Origin: Clostridia bacterium
Lineage (GTDB): Bacteria; Bacillota; Clostridia; Christensenellales; Aristaeellaceae
Length of the DNA: 32,000 bases
Direction of reading: 5' to 3'
Assembly: GCA_030526225.1 (NCBI GenBank)
Contig: JAUNDF010000007.1
Coordinates: 4,863 to 36,862 of the forward strand
Part shown: piece by piece, positions 3,753 through 25,997 of the stretch
Position numbering within the stretch: position 1 is the first letter of the stretch
Layout of the letters: every line of letters starts with the position of its first letter
Position numbers and translations under genes: made by a program
Notes under the pieces: model-generated
What the model was told of the DNA's origin: nothing
The model's input: the letters and a program-made list of their open reading frames with translations, nothing else
Database searches by the model: none

Positions 3753-3890
3753 AGCCGCATTCCTCCTGTCAAGGGAATACCCATAGTATACCCTTGATTT
3801 TCCAAAGCTGCAAGCTTGCATTTTCCGCCGGGAAAAGCTACAATGTAAATTGGATTAATATCGGTAGAAATCATCCGGAGGCGAGGAAGA

Positions 3891-4622
3891 ATGCAACTGA
3901 CCATCCTTGGCAACAACGGTCCGTATCCCGTGCCCGGCGGCGCCTGCTCCGGCTATCTTGTGTATGATGATAAGTCCTGCGTGCAGCTGGATCTGGGCAC
4001 CGGAACGCTTGCCGCCCTTGGCCGCCGCATGGACCCTGAAATGCTGGACGGCCTGCTGTTTTCCCACTGGCATCACGACCATTCCAGCGATGTGCTGCCC
4101 CTGCTTTACCGGCTGGCAGATACCCTCGGTGCCGACGGCAGACAGCTGCAGATCTACGCTCCGGAGGACGAGACCTCACCGGAATACAGGGCGGTGATGG
4201 CTTGCCCTGCCATCCGCCTGACGCAGGTAACACCCGGCATGACCTTTCAGGCGGGGGAACTTCGCGTAACGGTGCATCAGGCGCGGCATCCGGTGCCGGC
4301 GGTGATGTACCGGCTGGAGGATCAGGCGGGCAAGGTGCTGTGCTTCACCGGCGATACCAACACGGTGGCGGGCCTTGAGGATTTTGCCCGTAATGCCGAC
4401 CTTCTGCTGGCGGACGGCTTGTTCCCGGAGGCGGTCTGGTCGGAGGAAAAGCCCCATCTGTCTGCGGCGCTGGCTGCAAAGCTGGCAGCTGATGCAGGGG
4501 CCAAGCAGCTGGTGCTGACCCACTTCAGCCCCCGCTTCAACCAGAAGCAGCTGCTTCAGGAGGCACGTGCCTTCTATAAGAATGTAAAGCTGGCACAAAT
4601 CGGCGATACCTACACGGTGTAA
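3891..4622 (+). CDS. MBL-fold metallo-hydrolase (RNase Z/beta-lactamase-like)
   Basis: 243 aa. Contains the HWHHDH zinc motif and the downstream GDT and H residues typical of the metallo-beta-lactamase fold. GGAGGCGAGGAAGA ribosome-binding site before the ATG. Stop codon is TAA. Confidence 0.8.
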   Translation: MQLTILGNNGPYPVPGGACSGYLVYDDKSCVQLDLGTGTLAALGRRMDPEMLDGLLFSHWHHDHSSDVLPLLYRLADTLGADGRQLQIYAPEDETSPEYRAVMACPAIRLTQVTPGMTFQAGELRVTVHQARHPVPAVMYRLEDQAGKVLCFTGDTNTVAGLEDFARNADLLLADGLFPEAVWSEEKPHLSAALAAKLAADAGAKQLVLTHFSPRFNQKQLLQEARAFYKNVKLAQIGDTYTV

Positions 4623-4629
4623 TGCAGCC

Positions 4630-6891
4630 ATGACCAGGGAAAGATTCTTCAAAACGCTGCATACCTGTCTGCTGCCGCTGTGTGCCCTGACCTTTGCTGC
4701 GGGCATCCTGCTGGGCCGCGCAGGGGGCAGCATGTTGTACGGCTGGCTGGCCCTGATTCCCGCGGTGCTGGCGGTTATCGTGATGCCGAAGAAGCTCCGC
4801 TTTATCGGCGCCGCCTCGGTGATGCTGGTGCTGGGCTTTCTGTGGGGCTATCCGGCATTCCATCCGGCTATGCAGGAGGAAGGACTGTACCGTGTGCAGG
4901 GTGTAATGGCGGATGTCATCACTGTCAAAGGACAGCAGCACAGAACGGTGCTGTGTGATGTTACGCTGAACGGTCAGCCGGCGGGCAGCGATGTCTACTG
5001 GACCTTTTACGCCGAGGAAATGCCGGAAGGGCTGGCCCCGGGCAGACAGGTTTCCTTTGAGGGGGAGCTGTATCATCCGTCAAGCGCGGAGAATCCCGAG
5101 GGCTTCAACTTCCGGGAGTATCTTTTGGGCAGCGGCATCAGCTGTGCGCTGTACGGCAATACAGGGCTGGAGGTCCGTCCGTGCCCCTATTTTTCCCTGC
5201 GGGCCATGGCTGCTTCTGTGCGCCAATCCCTCAGCGATACCATGGCACAAGCCATGAGCCCATAGGCCGCCGCCTTTGCATCAGCCATGCTGCTGGGTGA
5301 CCGGAGCATGATTGATGCAGAGGACAGGGCCGCCTTCAACCGGCTGGGTATTGCCCACATTCTGTCCATGTCGGGCTTTCATGTGGGCATTCTGGCGGCA
5401 ATGCTGATGCTGGTGCTGAAAAAAGCATCGCCGCGCTTCCGGCTTTGCGTGACGGGGCTGGTGCTGGCCTTCTACTGCCTGCTGACCGGCGGTCATGTGC
5501 CGGTGATCCGCGCCGGCTGTCTGGTGCTCATCAGCCAGTACGGCAGGATGAAAAACAGGCGCGTGGATACCCGCTGGGTGCTGTGCGCCGCCTTTATCAT
5601 CACGCTGATGCTTTGCCCGGCGCAGCTTGTTTCCGCAGGCTTCCACATGACCTATGGCGCGGTGCTGGGGCTGAGCATTGTGAGCCGTGCACTGCAAAGG
5701 CTGTCCCCGCTGGGCAGCCGCCCTGTGGGCAAGGCGGTGTGGCAATCCTTCGCGGCCTCTGCGGGCGCGCAGTTCGGCATTCTGCTGCCCCAGCTGTACT
5801 GGTTTCAGCAGCTGCCGCTCATCAGCCTGATATTGAACATGGCGGTGATTCCCTTCGGCAGTCTGCTCATCGGCTGCCTGTGGGTCAATCTCCTGCTGTG
5901 CCTGTGGATGCCTGCGGCGCAGCTGTTCGGCCATGTGACCTCCTTTTTGACGGACATCCTGCTGGGTGCCGTGCGCCTGACGAACACATGGCCGGTGATG
6001 ATGCTCTGGACCCGCCGTGCAACGCTGCTGACGGCGCTGATGTGGGCGGGGATGCTCCTTGTGCTGTGCGTGTCATGGCGGGGGAGGAAAAAGCGGATGG
6101 GCTGCACCTTTGCCGCCATGGCGATGGTGCTGTGCCTGTCCCTGTGCCCGCTGCCCCATCATGGGACGGAATACATCCAGCTGTCTGTGGGCAATGCCGA
6201 TGCCGCCATCCTGCGGGATGAAAATACGGTCACCGTCATTGACACCGGCGAAGACGGCAGTGCAGTCAGCGATTATCTCCATGCCGGACGGCTGTCTGTT
6301 GACCATTTGATTTTGACACACCTGCACATGGACCATCTGGGCGGCGCAGCAGCACTGCTTCAGGACGGCATCCCCATCCGGCGGGTGTATATCCCCGAGG
6401 GCGCGGAAACGGCTGGCATCAGCGACGATGCACGGGCTGTGCTGGCTGCCCTGCGGAACAGCGGGGCGGAAATCGTTGCCGTCAGCCGGGGGGATACGCT
6501 GATGCTGCCCTCCGGCACACTGCAGGTGCTTTGGCCGGAGAAGGGCCGCGTACGCCCGGGGCAGGATGCCAACAGCTCTTCCCTCGTCCTGCGGGCAGAG
6601 CTTCGCGGCAGCACCATGCTGCTCACCGGCGATGTGGACGGCGATTACGAGCATTACGCCGCCGCACCGGCGGATATCCTGAAGGTTGCCCATCACGGCT
6701 CCTACAGCTCCACCGGACCGGCGTTTGTACAGGCTGTTTCGCCCAGAGCGGCGATTCTTTCCGGAAAGACCGCGGGCAGGATTGAGAAAACGAAGGAGCG
6801 GCTGGGCTGCCCTGTGTATGCCACGGGGGAGCGCGGCGCCGTAACGGTGGTGCTGGAGGAAGGCGGCTTCCGCATCAGCACGGTAAAATAA
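4630..6891 (+). CDS. comEC: DNA internalization competence protein ComEC/Rec2 (DUF4131 + Competence + MBL domains) with one in-frame TAG at 5263-5265. Under code 11 it would be a pseudogene or two fragments (4630-5265 and 5287-6891).
   Basis: Both ORFs are in the same frame (4630 and 5287 are each 1 mod 3). Reading through gives ...AQAMSP[TAG]AAAFASAMLLGDRSMIDAEDRAAFNRLGIAHILSMSGFHVGIL, which is the conserved ComEC core. The C-terminus carries HLHMDHLGG (MBL domain). holA is immediately downstream, as in Firmicute comE loci. No Shine-Dalgarno sequence precedes ATG 5287. Confidence 0.85.
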
Positions 6892-6912
6892 GCAATTTTT
6901 GTGAGGAACAGT

Positions 6913-7914
6913 ATGAATCATCGTGAATTGCAGCAGGCCATTGCAGCGGGGAAAATCGGGCGGCTGTACCTGCTGGACGGCACCGAGGAAAACCTGAAGG
7001 ACGAAGCGCTGCAGCTGCTGCGCAAGCAGGTGCTGCAGGAGGGGCTGGAGGACCTGAACGAGGCCGTGATGGACAATCCCCCCACGGACCAGATTATCGC
7101 CGCCGCGGAAACCCTGCCCTTTATTGCAGACAGGCGGCTGGTTATCGTCCGGGATCTGCAGTGCCTGACAGGCCGCGGAGAGACCGATGACCGGCTGAAG
7201 GACTACATGGCCCATGTGCCGGATACCACCGTGCTGGTGTTCTTTACCCGCGGCAAGGCCAACGGCACCAAGGCGCTGTACAAGCAGATTAAAAAGCACG
7301 GCCAGATTGTCACCTTTGAAAAGCTGAAGGGAGCGGAGCTGACAAGGTGGATTGTGGAGGAATTCCGCAAAAACGGCAAGACCTGCTCCAATCAGGTGGC
7401 GGACAGGCTGTCCTTTACCACCGGCACGGATACGGGGCTGTTGACGGCGGAAATTGCGAAGATTTCCTCCATGGCCGATGACCGGGACAATGTGGACCCG
7501 GAGGACATCGACAGGATGGCCACCCGCTCCATTGAATGCACCGTGTTTGAAATGGTGGATGCGGTGGTGGCCGGTCAGCAGTCACGGGCCTTCCGGCTGA
7601 TGCGGGACATGGTCACTGCCGGCGAGGACCGGCTGGGCATCCTGGCCATGCTGCTGCGTCAGTACCGGATGCTGCAGCACGTGAAAATCATGCAGTACGA
7701 AAAAAAGAGCGTGCAGGCCATGCAGCAGAGCCTGGCGGTGGCACCCTTCGTGATGGAGCGGTACCTGCGGCAGGCCAAGAGCTACACCGGCGGTCAGGTG
7801 AAGCGGGCGGTGGACATCTGCCTTGATACGGAATACCGTGTCAAGTCCGGCCGGATGAATCAGGAGGGCTCGCTGGAAGCCGCCATGTTAAAAATCTTTG
7901 CCCTGCGGCAGTAA
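6913..7914 (+). CDS. holA: DNA polymerase III delta subunit
   Basis: 333 aa, counted from the ATG at 6913 (GAGGAA ribosome-binding site at 6903-6908). Delta-subunit-like N-terminus (LYLLDGTEENLKDEAL) and C-terminal domain. Conserved position after comEC. Stop codon is TAA. Confidence 0.85.
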   Translation: MNHRELQQAIAAGKIGRLYLLDGTEENLKDEALQLLRKQVLQEGLEDLNEAVMDNPPTDQIIAAAETLPFIADRRLVIVRDLQCLTGRGETDDRLKDYMAHVPDTTVLVFFTRGKANGTKALYKQIKKHGQIVTFEKLKGAELTRWIVEEFRKNGKTCSNQVADRLSFTTGTDTGLLTAEIAKISSMADDRDNVDPEDIDRMATRSIECTVFEMVDAVVAGQQSRAFRLMRDMVTAGEDRLGILAMLLRQYRMLQHVKIMQYEKKSVQAMQQSLAVAPFVMERYLRQAKSYTGGQVKRAVDICLDTEYRVKSGRMNQEGSLEAAMLKIFALRQ

Positions 7915-7929
7915 GAAAAGAGGAAACCC

Positions 7930-8502
7930 ATGAAACGCAAGGAATTTCTTGATTTATACCAAACGGTGATGGTCACCGACCCCAAAACCGGCAAGCAGAA
8001 GCGCCGGGCCAAGTACATCGGGCCGTATTATGAAACGGACATGGCTTCCAAGCGGAAGCTGGTGCCGCTGCTGTGGGTGCTGTTTGTACTGCAGGCGGCG
8101 GTATACGCCGTCCCCGGGCTGATGTTTTCCACCATGATGACTGCATGGTATGTGCTGGTTCCGTACCTCATCTGCCTGCTGCCCATGCTGTATGCGCTGA
8201 TGGCCATGTTTGAAATCTCCACCATCAAAAATCCCCTGACCCGGGTGAAGCTGGCGGAAGGGCCGGAGAGCGCGAAGAACATGACCACCGCATCTGCCGT
8301 GGTGGGCATCATCTGGCTGGTGTGCGACATCATCTTTGCATTTGCCGGTGCCTTTGGCGCAACGCTTGCAAGCAACATCATCTGCATGGTGTGCGCGGCG
8401 GCCTTCAGCGGCCTGAACGCCATGATGGCAGTGAAAATCCGCACCATGGTGATTACGGAAAAACCGCAGGAGACGGAGGAGCGGCATGAAGGAGAAGCGT
8501 GA
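7930..8502 (+). CDS. Hypothetical multi-pass membrane protein
   Basis: 190 aa. AGAGGAAA ribosome-binding site. About four hydrophobic helices and an acidic tail. I do not recognise a family. Stop codon is TGA. It overlaps the next gene by 17 nt. Confidence 0.55.
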   Translation: MKRKEFLDLYQTVMVTDPKTGKQKRRAKYIGPYYETDMASKRKLVPLLWVLFVLQAAVYAVPGLMFSTMMTAWYVLVPYLICLLPMLYALMAMFEISTIKNPLTRVKLAEGPESAKNMTTASAVVGIIWLVCDIIFAFAGAFGATLASNIICMVCAAAFSGLNAMMAVKIRTMVITEKPQETEERHEGEA

Positions 8503-9790
8503 ATATACCCCCAGAGGCAGGGCAGACAAGGGCGCAAAGTTCCGCGGCTTTTCTCAGCCAAAGCGCCCCTGCGCCGCCAAACAGGAGACCGGTGATACCA
8601 AGGCGAAGACCGGCAAGCCTTCGCAGAAAAAGCCTGTGAGCAAGCTGGCCTGTCCTGTGGCCCACAAGTGCGGCGGCTGTCAGCTGACGACCATGACCTA
8701 CCGCGACCAGCTGGCGCTGAAAAAGAAGCAGGTCACGGAGCTTTTGGAGGGCATCTGTCCGGTGGAGGATGTCATCGGCATGGAGAAGCCCTTCCACTAC
8801 CGCAACAAGGTGCACGCCGTGCTGGGCGTGGATAAGCGTGGCATCCCCGTCAGCGGTGTGTATCAGGAGGGCACCCACCGGCTGGTGCCTGTGAAGTCCT
8901 GCCTGATTGAGGACCGCCGCGCCTCTGCCATCATCCAGACCATTGTGGCCATGCTGCCCCGCTACAAGCTGCGCATTTACAACGAGTACACCCATCGGGG
9001 CTTCCTGCGGCACATTCTCATCCGCACGGGCGAAAAGACAGGGCAGATCATGGTGGTGCTGGTGGCAACGGGCCGTGAATTCCCCGGCTACCGTGCCTTT
9101 GTGGAGGAACTGACGAAAAAGCACCCCGAAATCACCACCGTGGTGCTGAATGTCAACACCCGGGAGACCAGCATGGTGTTGGGGCAGAAGGATTATCCTC
9201 TGTATGGCGACGGATATATGGAGGACATTCTGTGCGGCAAGCGCTTCCGCATTTCGCCCCAGTCCTTCTTTCAGGTGAACGCCAAGCAGTGCGAGATCCT
9301 GTACAGCACTGCCCTTGATATGGCCGGGCTCACCGGCAGGGAAACGGTGCTGGATGCCTACTGCGGCACGGGCACCATCGGCCTTTGCGCCGCTGACAGG
9401 GCCAGGCATGTGCTGGGCGTGGAGCTGAACAGCGCCGCCGTGCGGGATGCCAAGGAAAACGCCCGCATCAACGGCATCAAAAACGCATCCTTCATCTGTG
9501 AGGACGCGGGCCGGTTTATGGTCAAGGCAGCCAGAGAGGGCTCTGTGCCTGATGTGGTGCTGATGGACCCGCCCCGGGCAGGCAGTGACGAGAACTTCCT
9601 CAAATCCCTGCTGACCCTTCAGCCGCCGAGGATTGTGTATGTATCCTGCAATCCCGAAACCCTGGCCCGGGATTTGCGCTATCTTGTGGAAGGCGGCTAC
9701 CGCGCCGAAAAAGCCATTCCCGTGGATATGTTCCCGTGGACGAGCCACGTGGAGACGGTGGTGGCGCTGTCCAAACCCTCTGCGGAGTAA
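8486..9790 (+). CDS. rlmD: 23S rRNA (uracil-C5)-methyltransferase, RlmD/RumA (TrmA) family
   Basis: 434 aa. Fe-S cluster cysteines (CPVAHKCGGCQL), SAM motif (DAYCGTGTIGL) and DPPRAG. Lys/Arg-rich N-terminal extension. GGAGGAG ribosome-binding site. Stop codon is TAA. Confidence 0.85.
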   Translation: MKEKREYTPRGRADKGAKFRGFSQPKRPCAAKQETGDTKAKTGKPSQKKPVSKLACPVAHKCGGCQLTTMTYRDQLALKKKQVTELLEGICPVEDVIGMEKPFHYRNKVHAVLGVDKRGIPVSGVYQEGTHRLVPVKSCLIEDRRASAIIQTIVAMLPRYKLRIYNEYTHRGFLRHILIRTGEKTGQIMVVLVATGREFPGYRAFVEELTKKHPEITTVVLNVNTRETSMVLGQKDYPLYGDGYMEDILCGKRFRISPQSFFQVNAKQCEILYSTALDMAGLTGRETVLDAYCGTGTIGLCAADRARHVLGVELNSAAVRDAKENARINGIKNASFICEDAGRFMVKAAREGSVPDVVLMDPPRAGSDENFLKSLLTLQPPRIVYVSCNPETLARDLRYLVEGGYRAEKAIPVDMFPWTSHVETVVALSKPSAE

Positions 9791-9832
9791 CCAAACACAG
9801 GACACAAAAAACAGAACGGCAGGTGAAAAAAT

Positions 9833-10381
9833 ATGAAGATTGAGAGAATTGTCTGCGACCTGAACGGACACACGCTGGTGCTTCGGAGCGCCGAAAAAGA
9901 GGATGCACAGATGCTGCTTCCGTACCTGAAAAGAGTGTGCGGAGAAACGCGGTTCCTTCTCCGTGAGGCGGATGAATGCGGGGATATGACGCTGGAGCAG
10001 GAAGAATCGTTCATCGTCAGCCATATGGAGGATGAGAAGGCCTGCCTGCTGCTGGCAGAGCTGGACGGCGAATACGCGGGCAACGCTTCCTTCCATGCCG
10101 CGGGTGCAAGCAGGAGAAATGCCCATCGGGCAGACCTCGGCATTGCGCTGTATCAGGCGTATACAGGCATGGGCATCGGCAGAAAGCTGTTTTCTACCTT
10201 GCTGGACATTGTCAAGCAAAGCGGCTTTGAATCGGCATAGCTCACCGTGGTGGAGGGCAACGACCGGGCCATCAGCCTGTACAAGTCCTTCGGCTTTGTG
10301 GAGACGGGTCGAATCCTCAAGGCAAACAAGTACGATGACGGGACGTATTCCGATGATATTTTCATGATGAAGAAATTGTGA
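9833..10381 (+). CDS. GNAT family N-acetyltransferase with one in-frame TAG at 10238-10240. Under code 11 it is truncated at 10240.
   Basis: The same frame continues through the TAG: ...GMGIGRKLFSTLLDIVKQSGFESA[TAG]LTVVEGNDRAISLYKSFGFVETGRIL...MMKKL, then TGA at 10379-10381. The segment after the TAG is the indispensable GNAT motif B / beta-strand region (N..AI.LY...GF...G). Without it the 135-aa product would lack half of the fold. Confidence 0.8.
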
Positions 10382-10405
10382 TACAATGTGCAGGAGGTGC
10401 GGCCC

Positions 10406-10606
10406 GTGAATCAGTCGGAGCGCATGGAAGCCTTTGAAAAAATGCTGGCGGATATACAGGAGCGCGCCGCCTTTGAGCAGCGCAAAATGGAGGAACTGAA
10501 GGCCGCGGGCAAGGAGAAATCCGCCACCTATCGCCAGTACTTCGGCAACAAAATGCTCTACAAAATGATGCTCGATCAGTACCGGGCCTACGGACTGATG
10601 GAATAA
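10406..10606 (+). CDS. Small hypothetical protein, predicted helical/coiled coil
   Basis: AGGAGG at 10392-10397 is followed by GTG at 10406. The ATG at 10424 is an alternative start. The charged heptad-like sequence is MEAFEKMLADIQERAAFEQRKMEELKAAGKEK. Stop codon is TAA. Confidence 0.4.
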   Translation: MNQSERMEAFEKMLADIQERAAFEQRKMEELKAAGKEKSATYRQYFGNKMLYKMMLDQYRAYGLME

Positions 10607-10629
10607 ACCGACAGAAAAGAGGGATTGTC

Positions 10630-11310
10630 ATGAAGATTCCCGCAGGGTTTCTGACGCCCACGGACTTGAATGCCGTGGCATCAAAGGACAGCGGCTACAT
10701 CAACAACAAGGGCGCAAAGCTGTACGCCATGGAGGAGTACCCCGCCGCGGTGGAATACTACCGGCTGGCGGCGGCCATGGGGGATGTACACGCGGTGTCC
10801 AATCTGGGCTACTGCTATCTGTACGGCCGTGCCATGGAGCCGGATGTGCAGCTGGCCATCGCCTATTTCCAGACCGCAGCCATGAAGGGCGATGTGGATG
10901 CCGCCTACAAGCTGGGCGATATCTACGGCAGAGACAAATGGGGCGTGATGGACACGGAAATGTCCCTGTACTACTACCGGATGGCTGTGGGCCTGATTGC
11001 CCCCGACTTGGGCAATGATGCCCGGAGCGTGGTGTTCTGCGACCGGCTGACTGACTACCCCAGCCTGTGCCTTGCCATGGGCCGTGCGTTTATGCCGGGC
11101 GGCATGCTGAATACCGATGTGGAGACGGCCTTCTGCTTCCTGAAAAAGGCGGAGGAGGGCTACGCAATCCAGCTGGCCAACGGACAGAAAATGTATGAAA
11201 AGTCCATGGAGCAGGTACAGCAGCTGCTGGACAACCCTGTTTTTGATTCCATCGGCTTCAAATTCCGGGACATGTTCGATGATGACATCGGGGAGTTTGA
11301 GGACGAATAA
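10630..11310 (+). CDS. Sel1-like (SLR/TPR) repeat protein
   Basis: 226 aa. Repeated A..YY..AA..G...A...LG.CY..G units, for example AVEYYRLAAAMGDVHAVSNLGYCYLYGRAM and AIAYFQTAAMKGDVDAAYKLGDIYG. Acidic tail. Stop codon is TAA. Confidence 0.75.
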   Translation: MKIPAGFLTPTDLNAVASKDSGYINNKGAKLYAMEEYPAAVEYYRLAAAMGDVHAVSNLGYCYLYGRAMEPDVQLAIAYFQTAAMKGDVDAAYKLGDIYGRDKWGVMDTEMSLYYYRMAVGLIAPDLGNDARSVVFCDRLTDYPSLCLAMGRAFMPGGMLNTDVETAFCFLKKAEEGYAIQLANGQKMYEKSMEQVQQLLDNPVFDSIGFKFRDMFDDDIGEFEDE

Positions 11311-11347
11311 GCTGTCAATCATCCAATCGATTAAGGAGGAATGACCC

Positions 11348-12022
11348 ATGTATTTTGACCCTACCTACATTCTCGTGATTATCGGTGCCGCCGTTTGCGG
11401 TCTGGCTTCCATGCACGTGAAGAACACCTTCAACAAGTACAACGACCTGTACAGCAGCGTGACGGCGCAGGAGGTGGCAGCCACCATGCTCCGCGATGCC
11501 GGCATTGACGATGTGCGCATCGAGTCCGTTTCCGGCAGCCTGACCGACCACTATGACCCCACCCAGAAGGTGCTTCGTCTCAGCGAAAGCGTGTACGGCT
11601 CTTACTCTGTGGCTGCCATCGGTGTGGCGGCCCACGAATGCGGCCATGCCATCCAGCACAAGGAAGGCTACATGCCCCTGAAGCTGCGCTCCCTGTCTGT
11701 GCCTGCGGCCAACTTTGGCTCTGTGCTGTCCTGGCCGCTGATGGTGCTGGGCATCATTCTGGGCTACAGACCCCTGACCACCATCGGCATTTTGCTGTTC
11801 AGTCTGGTGGTGCTGTTCCAGCTGATTACCCTGCCTGTGGAGTTCAATGCCTCCAGCCGCGCGCTGGCCATCCTCGACGGCAAGGGCGTTCTGCGCGGTG
11901 AACAGCTGCAGGGCGCAAAGGCCGTGCTCAGCGCCGCCGCCATGACCTATGTGGCCGCTTTGTTCAGCTCCATGATGCAGCTGACCCGCCTGATTCTGAT
12001 TTCCAAACGCAACGACGATTGA
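11348..12022 (+). CDS. Membrane zinc metallopeptidase, YugP/Zn_peptidase_2 family
   Basis: 224 aa. MYFDPTYILVIIGA..., LTDHYDP, AAHECGHAIQH (HExxH) and TLPVEFNASSRAL match this family throughout. AAGGAGGA ribosome-binding site. Stop codon is TGA. Confidence 0.85.
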   Translation: MYFDPTYILVIIGAAVCGLASMHVKNTFNKYNDLYSSVTAQEVAATMLRDAGIDDVRIESVSGSLTDHYDPTQKVLRLSESVYGSYSVAAIGVAAHECGHAIQHKEGYMPLKLRSLSVPAANFGSVLSWPLMVLGIILGYRPLTTIGILLFSLVVLFQLITLPVEFNASSRALAILDGKGVLRGEQLQGAKAVLSAAAMTYVAALFSSMMQLTRLILISKRNDD

Positions 12023-12052
12023 TTTCAACCGACCATCCGAAAGGAATCAGCC

Positions 12053-12511
12053 ATGATTACACTGCACAAAATCGACGAATCCAACTTCCTTTCGGCCTTC
12101 CGGCTGCAGCTGGGGGAGGGGCAGGAGAAATACGTGTCCGGCCCCATCCGCAGTCTGGCCCAGGCATATGTGTACCGCGACCAGTGCCAGCCCTTCGGCA
12201 TCTTCCACGGGGAGGAAATGGTGGGCTATGTGATGGTCATCTGCGACTACGATGTGCCGGAGTACGATATCTGGCACATGATGATTGACAAGGCGCATCA
12301 GGGCAGGGGCTATGGCCGCAAAGCCATGGAGCAGGTGCTTGCGTACATCGGCACAAAGCCCTTCGGTGATTACAGCCGGGTGTGCCTCACCTGCCACGAG
12401 GAAAACGAAGCCGCCCTGCGTCTGTATCGCAGTCTTGGCTTTGCCCCCACCGGCAGCCGGGACGAAGAAGAAATTGAACTGGTGCTTGATATTGCACCGA
12501 CGGAGGCATAA
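12053..12511 (+). CDS. GNAT family N-acetyltransferase (diamine/spermidine acetyltransferase-like)
   Basis: 152 aa. Contains HQGRGYGRKAMEQVL (acetyl-CoA motif A) and NEAALRLYRSLGF (motif B). Stop codon is TAA. Confidence 0.8.
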   Translation: MITLHKIDESNFLSAFRLQLGEGQEKYVSGPIRSLAQAYVYRDQCQPFGIFHGEEMVGYVMVICDYDVPEYDIWHMMIDKAHQGRGYGRKAMEQVLAYIGTKPFGDYSRVCLTCHEENEAALRLYRSLGFAPTGSRDEEEIELVLDIAPTEA

Positions 12512-12514
12512 CCT

Positions 12515-13660
12515 ATGGAACAACAACGCAGGCGTCTGGCAGCCACCGGCTACCTGGCCTTCCTCTTCAGCGGCCTTTGCGCCATTTCTGCCGGTGTGGT
12601 GGTCAGCATCCTGAAGGAAAAGTACCAGCTGTCCTTCGGCATGTCGGGCACGCTGCTGTCGCTGATGAGCGTGGGCAACATGGCGGCATCCTTTGCCGCA
12701 GGACTTCTGCCGGGAAAAATCGGCACGAAGAAAACCGTGGCACTGCTGTGCATCGGGTACTTTGTCGGGTATCTGCTGACGGCCTTCTTCAGTCAGGTGG
12801 GCATCCTGATGGGCGCATTTTTGCTCATCGGCATTGCCAAGGGCTGTGCCATCAACAACTGCACGGTGCTGGTGGGCAACAACGCCGCCGACCGGGCCAA
12901 GGGCATGAGCCTGATGCATGCCTTCTACGCCGTGGGTGCCATGGTGGGTCCCTTTGTGATTACTGCCCTTGCCATGATTAACAACACCATGCCCATGCTT
13001 GGCCTCGCGTTGGGCGGTCTGGTGATGTGGCTGATTTTCATGGCGGCCGGGCTTGACAACAAGCCTGCCAAGAAGGCGGACGGCAAGACCACGGACTTCT
13101 CCTTCCTCAAGGACCTGCGCTTCTGGCTTTTGACAGGGCTGATTTTCTTCCAAAACAGCGCCGAAACCGCCGTGACCGGCTGGCTGGTGACCTACTACAA
13201 GGACAGCGCCATCCTCAGCGGCACACTGAGCACCTACACGGTGACCATCATGTGGGGCGCAACATTGGCGGCTCGGCTTCTGATTGCCTTCGTGTTCCCG
13301 ATTAAGAACACCTTCAAGGCGCTGGCCATCATGGGCGCGGGCTGCGTGGTGCTGTACTTCGGGCTGGTCAGTGCGGTGACGCCGGTGATGGCCATCGTGA
13401 TGCTGGCAGGCTTTGCCTTTGCCATGGCGGGGGTCAATCCCGTGGGCATGGCCGGTGTTGGCAAGCAGATGAACGCCACCACCGTAGGTGTGCTGATTCC
13501 TCTTGCCGCCCTCGGACAGATTGTGATGCCCTGGATTATCGGCATCGCTGCTGACGGCATCGGCCTGCAGGCCGCCATGTGGCTGAACCTGATTCCCTGC
13601 GTCGGCATCGTGGTGATGAGCATCTGGATTATGATGCTGGATAAGAAAAAAGGTATATAA
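12515..13660 (+). CDS. MFS transporter
   Basis: 381 aa with about 12 hydrophobic segments in a 6+6 organisation. GGAGG ribosome-binding site. The start is 4 nt after the preceding GNAT stop. Stop codon is TAA. Confidence 0.85.
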   Translation: MEQQRRRLAATGYLAFLFSGLCAISAGVVVSILKEKYQLSFGMSGTLLSLMSVGNMAASFAAGLLPGKIGTKKTVALLCIGYFVGYLLTAFFSQVGILMGAFLLIGIAKGCAINNCTVLVGNNAADRAKGMSLMHAFYAVGAMVGPFVITALAMINNTMPMLGLALGGLVMWLIFMAAGLDNKPAKKADGKTTDFSFLKDLRFWLLTGLIFFQNSAETAVTGWLVTYYKDSAILSGTLSTYTVTIMWGATLAARLLIAFVFPIKNTFKALAIMGAGCVVLYFGLVSAVTPVMAIVMLAGFAFAMAGVNPVGMAGVGKQMNATTVGVLIPLAALGQIVMPWIIGIAADGIGLQAAMWLNLIPCVGIVVMSIWIMMLDKKKGI

Positions 13661-18664: not shown

Positions 18665-19357
18665 TCAGTCCTGGGGCACTTTGCCGTTGAGCAGCGCCTT
18701 GATTTGCGGCCATTGGGGCATGAAGCGGGTCATCATGGCCTTGAATTCTGCGCCGTGGTTGGGGATGCGGATGTGCATCAGCTCGTGCAGAATCACATAG
18801 GACAGGCATTCCGGCGGGTGCTTGGCCAGATGCAGGTTCAGGGTGATTTTTCTGGTGTCGGGCCTGCAGCTGCCCCAGCGGGAGGTCATGGCCCGAATCT
18901 GCCACGCGCTGCACTTCAGCCCCGTGGTGCGCTCCCATTGGGGCATCAGCCGGGCGATGGCATCCGTCAGCTGGCGGCGGTAGAAGGCATTCAGGACCGC
19001 TTCCTTCTGCGGCAGTGCAGCATCCTTGGGAACGGACAGAATCAGCCTGTCGCCCTCCAGCCGCACGCTGCTGCGCACCTTTGCCTCGCGGATGGTCAGT
19101 ACGCAGGGTCTGCCCCAAAGAAGGATTGTATCCCCGTCCTCCAAAGCGGCGGCTGTCATGGGTGCGCCGGCGTATTTGACCTGCTGGGCGCGAATCCAGT
19201 CAGCGCGGGATACAATGAACGATTCGATGTCCTTCACGCTCATGCGCAGGGGCGCGGAAACACGGATGTGGCCGTCCGGTGCGCATACATACAGGTGGAG
19301 TCCCTTTATTTTTTTCCGAAGCAGGTCAACCTGGAAACCGGCAATGATTTGCTGCAT
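18665..19357 (-). CDS. YgjP-like/DUF45 (M48 superfamily, SprT-like) metallopeptidase
   Basis: 230 aa, counted from the ATG at 19357 (AAGGAGA ribosome-binding site). Contains the HELMHIRIPNH zinc motif. The 299-aa ORF that starts at 19564 is an unsupported extension. Stop codon is TGA. It lies 36 nt upstream of the GNAT gene. Confidence 0.8.
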   Translation of the reverse strand: MQQIIAGFQVDLLRKKIKGLHLYVCAPDGHIRVSAPLRMSVKDIESFIVSRADWIRAQQVKYAGAPMTAAALEDGDTILLWGRPCVLTIREAKVRSSVRLEGDRLILSVPKDAALPQKEAVLNAFYRRQLTDAIARLMPQWERTTGLKCSAWQIRAMTSRWGSCRPDTRKITLNLHLAKHPPECLSYVILHELMHIRIPNHGAEFKAMMTRFMPQWPQIKALLNGKVPQD

Positions 19358-19496
19358 GGCTGTCTCCTTGTTTGCTGTTTCTGATACCAAAATTATAGCC
19401 TGCGGTGGCGGCGGTGTAAATGGCATTGCAGGCAGGAAAAATGACCGGGAAAGTCGAATTTCTTTTCCGGAAATGATGATAATGGAGGAATCCGCC

Positions 19497-20453
19497 ATGA
19501 AAATCGCTTTGCTGGAGCCCCTGGGCGTTGCCCCTGAAATGATTGAGGAACTGAGTGCCCCCATCCGGGTGGCCGGTCACGAATTTGTATATTATGCTGC
19601 CAAAACCACCGATCCCGAAGAGCTGATTCGCCGCAGTGCCGGCTGTGAAGCCGTGATGATTGCCAACAATCCCTTCCCGGCACAGGTGGTCAAGGCCTGC
19701 CCCGAGCTGAAGCTGATTAATGTTGCCTTCACCGGCATTGACCATGTGGCACAGGATGCCTGCCGGGTACAGGGCATCACCATCTGCAATGCCGCCAATT
19801 ATTCCAACCAGACCGTGGCGGAAATGGTCATCGGGCTGGTCATCGGCCTGTATCGCCATCTGGATGCCTGCAACAAGGCCGTCCGCACCGGCGGCACCTC
19901 TGCAGGGCTTATGGGCCGGGAAATTGCGGGGCGCACCGTGGGCATCATCGGCACGGGAAAAATCGGCCTGATGACGGCACGGCTGTTCCAGGCCTTCGGC
20001 GCAAAGGTGATTGCCTATGCACCCCGGCCCAAGGAAGCGGCGCTGGCCATGGGCATTGAGTATATGTCTCTGGAGGATGTGATGGCAAAAAGCGACATTG
20101 TGTCCGTGCATACGCCCAACATCCCCTCTACCCGCGGGCTGATCAGCCGTGAGATGATTGCGCTGATGAAAAAGGATGCGGTGCTTATCAACTGCGCCCG
20201 CGGCCCCATCGTGGACAGCGCCGCGCTGGCGGATGCTCTCAACGAGGACCGCATTGCCGGTGCGGGTGTGGATGTGTACAACGTGGAGCCGCCCATCCCC
20301 GACAGCGAACCGCTGCTCCATGCCAAAAACACGCTGCTGGCTCCCCATGTGGCCTTCCTCTCCGAGGAGGCCATGGTGCGCCGCGCCCATATCGCCTTTG
20401 CCAACATGAAGGCGTATCTCGACGGCAAGCCGGAAAATGTGGTTGCGTACTGA
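19497..20453 (+). CDS. D-isomer-specific 2-hydroxyacid dehydrogenase (phosphoglycerate/glycerate dehydrogenase-like)
   Basis: 318 aa, counted from the ATG at 19497 (GGAGGA at 19484-19489). NAD-binding motif GIIGTGKIG. Catalytic region NCARGPIVD...APHVA. Stop codon is TGA. Confidence 0.85.
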   Translation: MKIALLEPLGVAPEMIEELSAPIRVAGHEFVYYAAKTTDPEELIRRSAGCEAVMIANNPFPAQVVKACPELKLINVAFTGIDHVAQDACRVQGITICNAANYSNQTVAEMVIGLVIGLYRHLDACNKAVRTGGTSAGLMGREIAGRTVGIIGTGKIGLMTARLFQAFGAKVIAYAPRPKEAALAMGIEYMSLEDVMAKSDIVSVHTPNIPSTRGLISREMIALMKKDAVLINCARGPIVDSAALADALNEDRIAGAGVDVYNVEPPIPDSEPLLHAKNTLLAPHVAFLSEEAMVRRAHIAFANMKAYLDGKPENVVAY

Positions 20454-22093: not shown

Positions 22094-22160
22094 GCTGAAC
22101 CGGCAGAATCAGTAAAGTCCATTGAATACCGCGAAAAAATCTTTGAGAGGAGAAAACCGG

Positions 22161-25100
22161 ATGAAGCGTAAACGGTCATTTTTGTCCATATTTCTGGTGC
22201 CGCTGATGATCGTTGCATTTATACAGGGATTTCTCCCTTTTGCCACGCTGGTTGTCAGTGATGTGAAATCCATCATGGAGAACAACATCATCAGCATGGA
22301 CCAGAACGCTGTGGAAAACCGGCGGCTCACCCTGGAAAACGCCATGGTGGACCGCTGGAGCAGCGTGCTGGGCGAGTCTTCCAGTGTGGCGGAGCATCTG
22401 CAGCAGGTGCTGAAGGACAACGGCGCCGACATCGATGATTTCATTGCCTCGGATGAAATGCAGCAGCAGCTATTGGAAGCCATTTTCCCGGAAATGGTGC
22501 TGGCGCTGCAGAACAACACCACCAGCGGCCTGTTTCTGGTGCTGGACAACGGCAAGGACATGATGCAGCCGGCCAAGTACAACGGCTTCTTCCTGCGGGA
22601 CTCCGACCCCACCAACAAAATCAGCAGCAACACCGACATTCTGCTGGAGCGCGGCAGCAAGCGGCTGGCCCGCCAGCAGAACATCCCCATGGACAGCCCC
22701 TGGGCAACCCGCTTCAAGCTGGAGGGCTTCGGCTACCGCAAGGCGGACGATTTCTTCTACCAGCCCCTGAAGGCCGCAAAGGAAAACCCGGGCGTTGAAC
22801 CACGAATCCTCGGCTACTGGTCCCCGGCCTTCATTCTGGAGGACCACTATCTGGATACCCATCAGATGATTACCTACTCCGTGCCGCTGGTGTATCAGGG
22901 CCGGGTGTACGGCGTGATGGGTGTGGAGGTCTCCACAAGATACCTGGCAACCTATGTCCCCGTCCGCGATCTGGACCAGGGCCTGAACGCCGGCTATGCC
23001 ATTGCCGTCAGCAAGGGCGACGGCGTGTATGAGGTGGTCATGGGCACCGGCTCCCTGTACAAGTCGGTGGTGGGCAACAGCTCCGCCTTCCGCGTGACCG
23101 GCGAGCGCAAGGAACACCTGTACGAGCTGGAAAACGGCGTGGTGGGTGAGCAGAGCGTTTACGCCCTCATTTCCCCCATGAAGCTGTACAGCAACAACGT
23201 TCCCTACGAGGGCACCGAATGGGCGCTGGTGGGCTTTGTAACGGAGAACTCCGTCTTTGCCCCCGGCAATCTGGTGTACGGCCGAATCCTCACCACCATT
23301 CTGGTCTGCTCTGCGGTGGGTCTTTTGATGATTATCCTGCTGGTGCGCAAGGTCACCCGGCCTGTCAACCGGCTGATGGAAAGCGTCCGCCGGGGCTACA
23401 AGGGCCTGAAGGAATACGAACCCTCCTCCGTCCGTTAGGTGGAGGAGCTGCACGATGTGGTGCTGGAGCTGACGGAGGCACAGCAGACAGCCGCAGACAA
23501 GCTGAACGAGGAAAAGGAACGCTACCGCGTTGCCATCGACTCGGCAACGGACGTATTCTTCGTGTACCGCCGCGAAGAGAAAATGCTGGAGATTGTGAAT
23601 GACTCAATCAACAGCGGCGTTTGGTCTCTGGGGGATGAAGAGTGCAGTATCGTGCGCGAGTCCATCCATCCCGAAGACCGGCAGATGTTTATCGACTACA
23701 TCAACAACCCGCAAGGTGACATGGAGATGGAGCTGCGCGTCCGCAGAAGACCCGAGCACCCCTACATGTGGGTAGAGGTCAGCGGCCATCTCTTCGGCGG
23801 CACCGGCGGCGAGCATCTGCGCGTGGTAGGCTATATCCGAAACATCAACCAGCGCAAGCAGCAGGAGCTGGAGCGGGAAATGCGCCAGGTCCTCGACCCG
23901 GCCACCAGCCTGTACCGCGCCGCTGCCGGCTTCAACCGCATGGCGCAGATGCGAAAGCTGAACCCTGTGGGTACGCTGCTGCTGGTGGATATCAACAGCT
24001 TCTCGACCATCAACGAAAAGTATGGCATCGTTTTCGGCGATGTGGTGCTGGATGAACTGGCCAAGCTGCTGCGCGGTGCTGTCAGCGTGCTGTGTCCCGA
24101 GGAAGCACTGCTGATTCGTGCCGGCGGCGACGAGCTGCTGGCATGGCTCCCCGGCGTTGCGGAAGGCCAAACGGCAAGCGTGATGCCCGAACTGGAGCGC
24201 CGCTTTGCTTCCCTGATTCACTCCGCCTCCGTGCCCCTGCGGCTTGACTGGGCCACTGCCCCCGCAGACGGGGAGGTCAGCGATCAGGCACTGGTGCAGC
24301 GCACCAAGCAGAAGCTGGCAGGCGCCTACCATGGCGGCAGCACAAGGGACTTCTCCGAGCCGGTTTCCATCGGCTACAACACCAGAGCCGATATTGCCAC
24401 CCTGGCCCGCAACATGTTTGAGCGCACCGATGATATCGGCGCTGTGCTGGATCTGGTGGCGCTTCGCCTTAAGGAGCAGTACGGCATCACCGATATGCTG
24501 ATTACCGACTTCCGCTACGACAGCCTCTCCAGCACGCTGGAATACTCCTGGCGCAAGGGACCGCAGGCAGATATGCACGAGGTTGTCAGCCACTGTAAGG
24601 AAGAGGAATACCGCCTCTTCTGGCAGCATGTGGAAAACAAGCAGCTCCATGCATATGTGGATGAGCTGTCAAAGCATCCGCTCTTTGCCATGATGGGGCA
24701 GCTTGATGCCGGCATTACCTATCACATGATGGATAACGGCAGCTACTCCGGCAGCATCGTGTTTGCAGGCGCTTCCACGGCCATCCTCGATAACGAGGCC
24801 GACCGCACCCGCCTGACTGAGGTGGGCCGCGCCATCCAGAACCGCATCAATCAGGAGCGTCACGACCAGTCGGCACAGGCCAAGTCCGACTTCCTTGCCC
24901 GCATGAGCCACGAAATCCGCACCCCCATGAACGGCATCATCGGCATGACGGAAATCGCCCTGAAGCCCGGCCAGACCGAAGAACACCGCATCGAGTGCCT
25001 GAAGAAGGTCCGCAGCTCCTCCAACTATCTGCTGGGTCTGCTCAATGACATTCTGGACATGTCCAAGATTGAAAGCGGCAAGATGCAGCTGGTGGAAACG

Positions 25101-25997
25101 GACTTCAATCTGGATAAGCAGCTGCGCGAGCTGCATGTACTGCTGGATGCAAAGTTCCGCGAAAAGAACCAGACCTTTGTCACTTCCTTCGACCTGAAGC
25201 ACAAGTTTTTCCACGGCGATTCCCTGCGCATCAATCAGGTGCTGATTAACCTGATTGGCAACGCGGTCAAGTTTACCGGGGAAGGCGGTCATATCTACCT
25301 GACCGTGAAGGAAACCGTGCTGGACAGCAGCCGCTCTCAGCTGTCCTTCTCCGTGCGGGATGAAGGCATCGGAATCTCTGCCGAAGACAGGGAACGCATC
25401 TTCCTCAGCTTTGAGCAGGTCAATTCCCCCGAAGCCAACCGTCAGGGCACCGGCCTTGGTCTGGCCATTTCCAGCCGTATGGTGCACATGATGAACGGCG
25501 AAATTCAGCTGGACAGCGAGGTTGGCCGCGGCAGTGACTTCCACTTCGACCTGATGTTGTCCCCCGTGGACATGCAGGAAGAGGCCGCTGAAGAGCGCGT
25601 GGACTTCGACTTTACCGGCGTGAAGGTGCTGGTGGCCGAGGACAACGAGCTGAACATGGAAATCATCTGCGAGGTGCTGGGTGACTACGGCATGCTGGTG
25701 GATGGCGCCACAGACGGCCGCAAGGCAGTGGAGAAATTCGCCGCCGCCGCGCCGGGCACCTATGATCTGGTGCTGATGGACATTATGATGCCCAACATGA
25801 ACGGCATTCAGGCCACCAGAGCCATCCGCTCGCTGGACCACCCCGACAGCAAGACCGTGCCCATTGTGGCCATGACCGCCAACGCCTTTGATGAGGATGT
25901 GAAGCGCTCTCTGGCCGCCGGCATGAACGAGCACCTGTCCAAGCCCATCAACATCCCCGAGCTGGAGAAAACGCTGGCAAGGGTGCTGAAAAAGTAA
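22161..25997 (+). CDS. Hybrid sensor histidine kinase/response regulator with one in-frame TAG at 23436-23438, inside the HAMP-like linker. Domain order is TM, extracellular sensor, TM, HAMP, PAS, GGDEF-like, HisKA, HATPase, REC. Under code 11 it would be two fragments (22161-23438 and 23439-25997).
   Basis: Both ORFs share a frame (22122 and 23439 are each 0 mod 3). The junction reads ...LLVRKVTRPVNRLMESVRRGYKGLKEYEPSSVR[TAG]VEELHDVVLELTEAQ. Downstream are PAS, a GGDEF-like segment (VDINSFSTINEKYGIVFGD...RAGGDELLAWL), the H-box SHEIRTPMNGIIG, the G-boxes GTGLGLAIS, and REC (VLVAEDNELNMEI...DLVLMDIMMP...KP). Start is the ATG at 22161, preceded by GAGAGGAG. Stop codon is TAA. Confidence 0.85.

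Follow-up and report, generated by a model that had tools for sequence, protein, structure and literature searches.

The question raised by this locus is whether a TAG codon lying in frame inside comEC of an uncultured Clostridia bacterium marks the point at which the gene is broken or is instead read as an amino acid. The stretch analyzed, referred to here as the window, comprises 32,000 nucleotides of contig JAUNDF010000007.1 from a metagenome-assembled genome (MAG; assembly GCA_030526225.1). comEC is a single gene broken by a stop codon rather than two open reading frames (ORFs) that happen to lie side by side. Its TAG, taken alone, would make a textbook case of a GAG>TAG nonsense mutation and is ordinary by itself. 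Two other genes in the window, which encode a GNAT acetyltransferase and a histidine kinase, are likewise interrupted by an in-frame TAG on a Glu column, and no gene of the window ends in TAG. Together, the three TAGs are a credible lead to a bacterial code in which UAG specifies Glu or to natural amber suppression. That UAG is indeed decoded as Glu in this organism, by reassignment or by an efficient tRNA-Glu-like amber suppressor, is the explanation that we rank first, and we regard it as evenly poised on the DNA evidence. The gene and the codon from which the analysis started are as follows.

4630..6891, plus strand: comEC, 753 sense codons and one internal TAG, with DUF4131, Competence, and MBL domains.
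5263..5265, plus strand: in-frame TAG no. 1, inside comEC; 24 of 32 orthologues have Glu in the aligned column.

The window text around the first TAG reads ATG AGC CCA TAG GCC GCC GCC TTT GCA TCA GCC ATG CTG CTG GGT GAC CGG AGC, within which AGC CCA TAG GCC occupies positions 5257-5268. As the original prediction had stated, the ORFs at 4630-5265 and 5287-6891 share one frame with seven codons between the TAG and ATG 5287, and their joint translation runs through ...AQAMSP, the TAG, and AAAFASAMLLGDRS.... While the part before the TAG matches DUF4131 in Pfam (2e-16), the part after it matches Competence (9e-50) and Lactamase_B (4e-16), and if the TAG is read through, all three domains of the ComEC/Rec2 architecture are present and collinear in one polypeptide. 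The joined protein was compared with its 120 best ComEC matches, which include this MAG's own fragment. With that fragment excepted, all of them are unsplit proteins of ~740-790 amino acids (738-794 among the homologues listed) that span the site, and for this reason comEC is regarded as one interrupted gene. The best of them are only 43-53% identical to the joined protein, the closest at 53%. The predicted single comEC, with its in-frame TAG immediately ahead of the LLGD motif, was thus borne out by the window letters, by Pfam, and by the homologues. Alignment of the orthologues, which had been proposed as a way to identify the residue at this position, gave Thr in five and Arg, Asp, or Gln in the remainder of the 32 sequences besides the 24 with Glu, and the codon at the site in the two nearest orthologues is GAG (L082) and GAA (L083), respectively. 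Moreover, 77 columns are invariant in all 33 aligned ComEC sequences, query included, and are found on either side of the TAG.

The segment of ComEC immediately around the TAG (5245-5280) is unusually divergent, and the flanking segments are well conserved. At -2, where Gly is present in 31/33 sequences, the residue is Ser; at -1, Glu is replaced by Pro; and at +2, where 32/33 have Gly, it is Ala. The loop may have come under weaker local constraint in this lineage. In the NCBI annotation, the C-terminal part at 5287-6891 is given as a complete ComEC/Rec2 protein of 534 amino acids. The MAG, labeled 'Clostridia bacterium', contains protein MDO4483238.1 and bears locus tags Q4C54_, and its contig here measures 43,375 nt; a literature search on the run, the locus tag, and the accession gave no result. 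The predicted synteny of comEC and holA is intact in the window and is also kept in the relatives L082 and L083.

6913..7914, plus strand: holA, DNA polymerase III delta subunit, intact, ending in TAA; alternative start at 6901.

The two further genes with an in-frame TAG, and the codons themselves, are located as follows.

9833..10381, plus strand: GNAT N-acetyltransferase gene, 182 codons and one internal TAG, by Pfam and homologue sizes.
10238..10240, plus strand: in-frame TAG no. 2, inside the GNAT gene; the column is Glu in 36 of 40 homologues.
22161..25997, plus strand: sensor hybrid histidine kinase gene, by Pfam and homologues, interrupted once by a TAG within the juxtamembrane linker.
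23436..23438, plus strand: in-frame TAG no. 3, inside the kinase gene; the column is Glu in 30 of 30 homologues.

The GNAT ORF at 9833-10240 runs on past its TAG to a TGA at 10381, with the translation ...SGFESA, the TAG, and LTVVEGNDRAISLYKSFGFVETG.... While the N-terminal part alone matches Acetyltransf_1 in Pfam with 32.6 bits over profile positions 19-94, the joined parts reach 55.4 bits over positions 20-116 of 116, and the homologues, at 180-184 amino acids, have the size of the joined ORF. The TAG falls between motif A in the N-terminal part and the N..A..lY..GF segment in the C-terminal part, and homologues in the PDB align across the site with Glu or Gln there. The kinase has a layout of two transmembrane segments with a PDC-like extracellular sensor, followed by a linker and then by PAS/GGDEF, HisKA, HATPase, and REC. 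The ORF at 22122/22161-23438 holds the signal or first transmembrane segment, the PDC-like sensor, and the second transmembrane segment, and it adjoins, with only the TAG between, the ORF at 23439-25997, which holds GGDEF, HisKA, HATPase, and REC. Kinase homologues of 1000-1100 amino acids give 100% coverage of a query that spans the TAG, the closest being ~45% identical, and the TAG column lies within the motif S-x-I-x-E-[ILV]-D-E-L-H. In all three genes, the TAG is single, and all alignment-invariant residues are retained on either side of it.

In the NCBI annotation, the kinase appears as two separate entries, 'hypothetical protein Q4C54_02135' (391 amino acids, 22263-23438) and 'ATP-binding protein' (846 amino acids, 23457-25997). 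The closest homologue of the kinase, from an organism with 34% GC, has an in-frame TGA of its own at positions 11825-11827 of L084 (...KKFRE, the TGA, and KEDIILFLVDID...), which also occurs in L085 and L086. This TGA-split product was found on six contigs, of which L084-L086 represent three different samples, and the TGA lies between the PAS and GGDEF parts. The organism ends other genes in TGA as well, and no amino acid is inferable for the kinase TGA because the column sits in a variable linker.

Codon bookkeeping covered 30 genes and 9943 codons of the window. TAA terminates 23 of these genes, TGA seven, and TAG none, examples of terminator positions being 1187-1189, 4620-4622, 6889-6891, and 7912-7914. 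Among stop-to-stop ORFs of high GC content at third codon positions (GC3), the only ones that end in TAG are the three described above, each with further coding sequence in frame downstream. Within the 9943 codons, TAG occurs in frame three times and TAA and TGA not at all, such that ~10% of the window genes (3/~30, from unrelated conserved families) have a single in-frame stop that is always TAG. With 291 GAG and 266 GAA codons in the window, in-frame TAG amounts to three per ~560 Glu codons (~0.5%). Other potential sources of stops are CAG (291 codons), TAC (225), and TGC (138), and none of the three TAGs stands on a Gln column, although all 291 CAG codons lie one C>T transition from TAG. 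No frameshifts were seen in the window genes, the remaining ones having full-length domain matches at high coding density, and the window has a GC content of 58% and a GC3 of ~0.76. Compared with loci of ComEC relatives, terminators are shifted toward TAA (23 TAA and 7 TGA versus 58 and 111; odds ratio 6.3, Fisher P = 3e-5), and this strong preference for TAA is possibly connected with the in-frame TAGs.

Same-frame adjacency was also considered as evidence of split genes and rejected. Runs of genes in the same frame with only a stop between them occur elsewhere in the window, namely comEC-holA-membrane protein (4588-8502) and Zn-peptidase-GNAT-MFS transporter (11345-13660), and these consist of distinct families with complete domains. 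Since such adjacency also arises by chance in the window, only homology across the junction counts.

The phylogenetic setting was examined through ComEC and through the class II FBA encoded in the window. ComEC is 33-53% identical to proteins of Clostridia MAGs, including an Aristaeellaceae bacterium, a Christensenella sp., and a Candidatus Limiplasma sp., and just 22-27% identical to those of Oscillospiraceae. The similarity points to a relative of Aristaeellaceae and Christensenella rather than of Oscillospirales, where the original prediction had placed the organism. No strain- or genus-level relative was found via ComEC or the kinase in a database of 5.8 billion protein clusters, and no synteny was found between the window and the metagenome relatives obtained with FBA (up to 93% identity). 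In the loci found through ComEC, TAG terminates 19 of 188 genes (TAA 58, TGA 111), in 80 loci found through FBA 68 of 649 (TAA 309, TGA 272), and in the closest eight FBA loci 3 of 61 (TAA 31, TGA 27). TAG thus makes up ~5-10% of terminators in relatives, which gives a probability of about 0.04-0.2 for finding none among 30. The sole long ORF with an in-frame TAG among the loci of the FBA relatives was an antisense shadow and was discarded.

Two observations had been named beforehand as favoring an ordinary stop. One of them was found, in that the nearest comEC orthologues have GAG or GAA at the site and the relatives do terminate genes with TAG. The other, common degradation of comEC in the lineage, was not, all listed homologues being full length with the MAG's own fragment excepted. 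By the logic of the original prediction, which considered one gene only, the former would point to simple pseudogenization. The recoding reading was reopened by two more TAGs (10238 and 23436), both at columns where Glu is conserved, and by the lack of TAG terminators in the window; what the original prediction read into the locus beyond plain description is partly supported.

Decoding of UAG as Glu would account jointly for the Glu columns, the restriction of in-frame stops to TAG, the absence of TAG terminators, the lack of decay, and the lack of any TAG on a Gln column. We infer from the DNA the decoding itself, the identity of the amino acid, and a mechanism involving a tRNA and RF1. In the proposed sequence of events, a duplicated tRNA-Glu would, by a single change from CUC, gain the anticodon CUA, and GluRS would still charge it with Glu. 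RF1 would be lost, weakened, or narrowed to UAA, and TAG terminators would be replaced, mostly by TAA. GAG>TAG changes would then be neutral, synonymous substitutions that accumulate slowly, having reached ~0.5% of Glu codons so far, and the comEC, GNAT, and kinase genes would be intact and produce full-length proteins. A full, genome-wide reassignment of UAG to Glu, with a tRNA-Glu(CUA) and with RF1 lost or restricted to UAA, is a possibility that we hold only tentatively and do not rate as probable. In a variant with partial suppression, an amber-suppressor tRNA would act beside RF1, and only genes in low demand would tolerate TAGs; the data cannot separate the two forms, and the smaller share of the weight placed on decoding goes to this variant. 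A reading of UAG as Gln, or by a near-cognate tRNA, is disfavored because CAG>TAG changes should place TAGs mainly on Gln columns, where there are none. In addition, no sequence motif common to the three TAG sites was found, which disfavors a gene-specific programmed readthrough signal as well as a systematic base-calling error. No Rfam family reached its gathering score anywhere in the window.

Several points weigh against decoding of UAG as Glu. The evidence consists of three codons in one 32-kb window of one MAG from one sequencing run, the trait is seen in a single genome with no clade of relatives sharing it, and the prior is low because a code that assigns UAG to a canonical amino acid is known in no cellular bacterium despite large screens, genome-wide recoding of UAG being on record only in phages and, as pyrrolysine, in some Archaea. 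ARAGORN detected no tRNA or tmRNA in the window and no tRNA with the anticodon CUA among the 14 tRNAs of the fetched loci (2.4 Mb). No credible in-frame TAG or TAG-split gene was found in the ComEC relatives (48-53% identity) or the FBA relatives (87-93%), and the absence of TAG terminators from 30 genes is weak evidence because the closest FBA relatives already use TAG rarely (~5%). The three interrupted genes are all of dispensable types (competence, signaling, and acetyltransferase), as nonsense pseudogenes would be, and no TAG occurs in holA, the class II FBA gene, or the RlmD-like methyltransferase gene, such essential or conserved genes being few in the window. Moreover, coding-strand G>T changes make stops only from GAG, GAA, and GGA, so that TAGs on Glu columns need no special code, and such changes alone give ~12% for three TAGs without a TAA or TGA. 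Depending on the priors, a rough Bayesian estimate for recoding spans about 0.3 to 0.9.

These points lead to the explanation that we consider a serious contender, although short of an even chance, in which three independent, recent GAG>TAG nonsense mutations have left young pseudogenes or truncated products and TAG is an ordinary stop. Its setting would be a G>T-biased mutation supply (for example, from a defect in 8-oxoG repair), relaxed selection, or both. Each TAG is a single G>T from a Glu codon, comEC orthologues having GAG or GAA, and the three genes are of non-essential types, with the essential genes of the window untouched. Broken copies of the kinase family exist elsewhere (the TGA in L084-L086), no tRNA(CUA) was found in the window or the fetched loci, and the authors of Codetta warn that stops in pseudogenes mimic reassignment (PMC8629427). 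However, ~10% of the window genes would have been hit, yet there is no frameshift, second lesion, or loss of an invariant residue; the genes are interrupted relative to their orthologues as nonsense pseudogenes are, but the further stops, frameshifts, and invariant losses of continued decay were not found. All three stops are TAG though GAA>TAA (266 codons), TAC>TAA (225), and TGC>TGA (138) were comparably available (P about 0.02-0.12). If all substitutions are taken as equal, GAG>TAG makes up 11% of the one-step routes to a stop, and three of three has a probability of about 0.0014; the share rises to 29% when only G:C>T:A changes are counted (about 0.024) and to 49% when only coding-strand G>T is counted (about 0.12). 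The observed three of three GAG>TAG-type changes are therefore off the expectation for nonsense pseudogenes, the stops of which typically arise by transitions at CAG, TGG, and CGA (PMC8629427), and none of the three is of this kind. The absence of TAG at the ends of all 30 genes also speaks, if weakly, against an ordinary stop, and the high GC3 (~0.76) is evidence against a GC>TA mutator of long standing. In a mutator test on 370 conserved columns, which has low power, G>T was not clearly enriched, and no Gly>Cys/Val and no Asp>Tyr change was seen. If this explanation is true, the window would preserve the trace of a burst of G>T nonsense mutations, unusual and of modest interest.

A sequencing or assembly artifact is very unlikely; the real genome would then have GAG at all three sites, and the TAGs would stem, for example, from a chimeric consensus or from oxidative G>T damage where coverage is low. 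Speaking for an artifact are the G>T nature of all three changes, which is typical of 8-oxoG damage, the restriction of the organism to a single known sequencing run, and the short Logan contigs (1.5 and 5.9 kb), which hint at modest coverage. However, independent Logan assemblies of that run, SRR24915835, reproduce two of the three TAGs: contig L001 is 100% identical to window 3834-9754 and has the comEC TAG, and contig L087 is 100% identical to window 9730-11192 and has the GNAT TAG. The NCBI MAG and the Logan assemblies thus agree completely over 7.4 kb, and the comEC TAG, for which support beyond the assembly had been called for, is not an artifact of one assembler. Damage errors are rare per read and would have to win the consensus three times; with ~94% of such errors missense or silent, ~40-50 errors would be implied in the window, and damage would make TAA and TGA as often as TAG. 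That the genes work in split form under the standard code, their downstream parts being translated by reinitiation after the TAG with function retained, is more improbable still. ATG 5287 does follow the comEC TAG by seven codons and GTG 23439 directly follows the kinase TAG, a Shine-Dalgarno-like GGAGGAG precedes GTG 23457, and a soluble GGDEF-HisKA-HATPase-REC protein could conceivably act alone. Nevertheless, the Shine-Dalgarno sequence that 21 of the 27 ordinary starts of the window possess is missing before ATG 5287, GTG 23439, and GTG 10247. Its absence before ATG 5287 had been predicted and was found, but the argument drawn from it has little weight because the genuine comEC start at 4630 also lacks a good one, having only GGTG. 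Furthermore, a split would divide the GNAT fold between motif A and its C-terminal strands, and the resulting tail of 44-46 amino acids is implausible as a separate protein; close homologues of the three families show no natural split at these points, and TAG at a Glu position in all three junctions would be left unexplained. Least probable of all, and rejected on the nature of the TAG sites and of the three genes, is that TAG encodes pyrrolysine or another non-canonical residue. UAG is the pyrrolysine codon, and a genome-wide UAG>pyrrolysine code has been reported in Archaea (bioRxiv 10.1101/2024.09.30.615893). However, the three proteins do not include a methylamine methyltransferase, no pyl genes lie within the window, and a bulky, basic pyrrolysine is implausible at conserved acidic Glu sites, one of them invariant in 30 of 30 homologues.

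Comparing decoding of UAG as Glu with known systems, it becomes apparent where the case is familiar and where it departs. All known bacterial stop reassignments involve UGA, namely UGA>Trp (table 4) in Mycoplasmatales, Hodgkinia, Zinderia, Nasuia, Stammera, and some Eggerthellaceae and UGA>Gly (table 25) in Absconditabacteria/Gracilibacteria (PMC8629427), and screens of >250,000 genomes have found no code assigning UAG to a canonical amino acid in cellular bacteria (PMC8629427; bioRxiv 10.64898/2026.05.24.727570). As in these UGA codes, which were likewise read from DNA, a stop codon recurs in frame in conserved genes, each time where the alignment favors the same amino acid, and it ends none of the 30 genes counted here. 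In contrast to them, the codon is UAG, the amino acid would be Glu, and the release factor concerned would be RF1 instead of RF2. To our knowledge, almost all bacterial stop reassignments are found in small, AT-rich genomes, whereas the genome described here is rich in GC (58%), high in GC3, and of normal coding density, being neither AT-rich nor reduced. In addition, the usage is very low (3/~560 Glu codons) and confined to a single genome without a clade.

Reading of UAG as Glu has a counterpart in the UAR>Glu nuclear codes of peritrich ciliates (table 30) and Blastocrithidia nonstop (table 31), which are reported to rely on tRNA-Glu with a stop-complementary anticodon (PMC5304391, PMC12153298). 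However, those codes use eRF1 and reassign UAA too, whereas TAA is the main terminator here (23/30), and there is no evolutionary connection. Amber-recoded gut phages, among them crAss-like and Lak phages, read TAG as Gln (bioRxiv 10.1101/2021.08.26.457843). Like these phages and the Archaea with UAG>pyrrolysine, the organism would use UAG as a sense codon across many genes with TAG depleted as a terminator; unlike the phages, the window is chromosomal bacterial DNA (comEC, holA, class II FBA, and an NAD(P)HX repair enzyme), and unlike both, the residue would be Glu rather than Gln or pyrrolysine. Scattered conserved in-frame stops with presumed readthrough, involving all three stop codons and including a TAG/CAG polymorphism, have also been described in bacteria (Belinky et al. 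2021, PMC7918605). The present TAGs resemble them as in-frame stops in bacterial genes that still seem to be under constraint, but here three occur in 32 kb, all are TAG on Glu columns, and TAG terminators are lacking. In amber-suppressor strains such as E. coli supE and supF, one anticodon change gives partial decoding of UAG, and RF1 may persist; nonsense alleles of non-essential genes are tolerated, and readthrough selects against natural TAG terminators. These strains, like RF1-deficient E. coli, are laboratory or strain-level variants, unlike the organism described here, and no bacterial lineage in nature is known to us in which amber suppression that inserts Glu has become fixed. In E. 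coli, tRNA-Glu(CUA) is largely mischarged with Gln.

One region outside the three interrupted genes also deserves mention. At 18665-19600 of the window, the 5' ends of two divergent genes, encoding a YgjP-like metallopeptidase (minus strand) and a 2-hydroxyacid dehydrogenase (plus strand), appear to overlap, and the domain match of the latter suggests a start ~25 codons upstream of 19590.

If UAG is decoded as Glu, translation table 11 would mis-call ~10% of the organism's genes as split genes or pseudogenes, as the NCBI annotation already does for comEC and the kinase, and with TAG as a sense codon, split gene models would probably be spread through the whole annotation of the MAG. Among cellular bacteria, the case would be the first in which amber has been reassigned to a canonical amino acid, and it would be the first code beyond the eukaryotes to turn a stop into Glu; it would also have arisen in a GC-rich, non-reduced genome, against the pattern of AT pressure and genome reduction in the known bacterial cases. 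A natural pair of an amber-decoding tRNA and GluRS would be of direct interest for genetic-code engineering, and this bacterium of free-living type, with its new natural code, would demonstrate that termination by RF1 is dispensable in nature.

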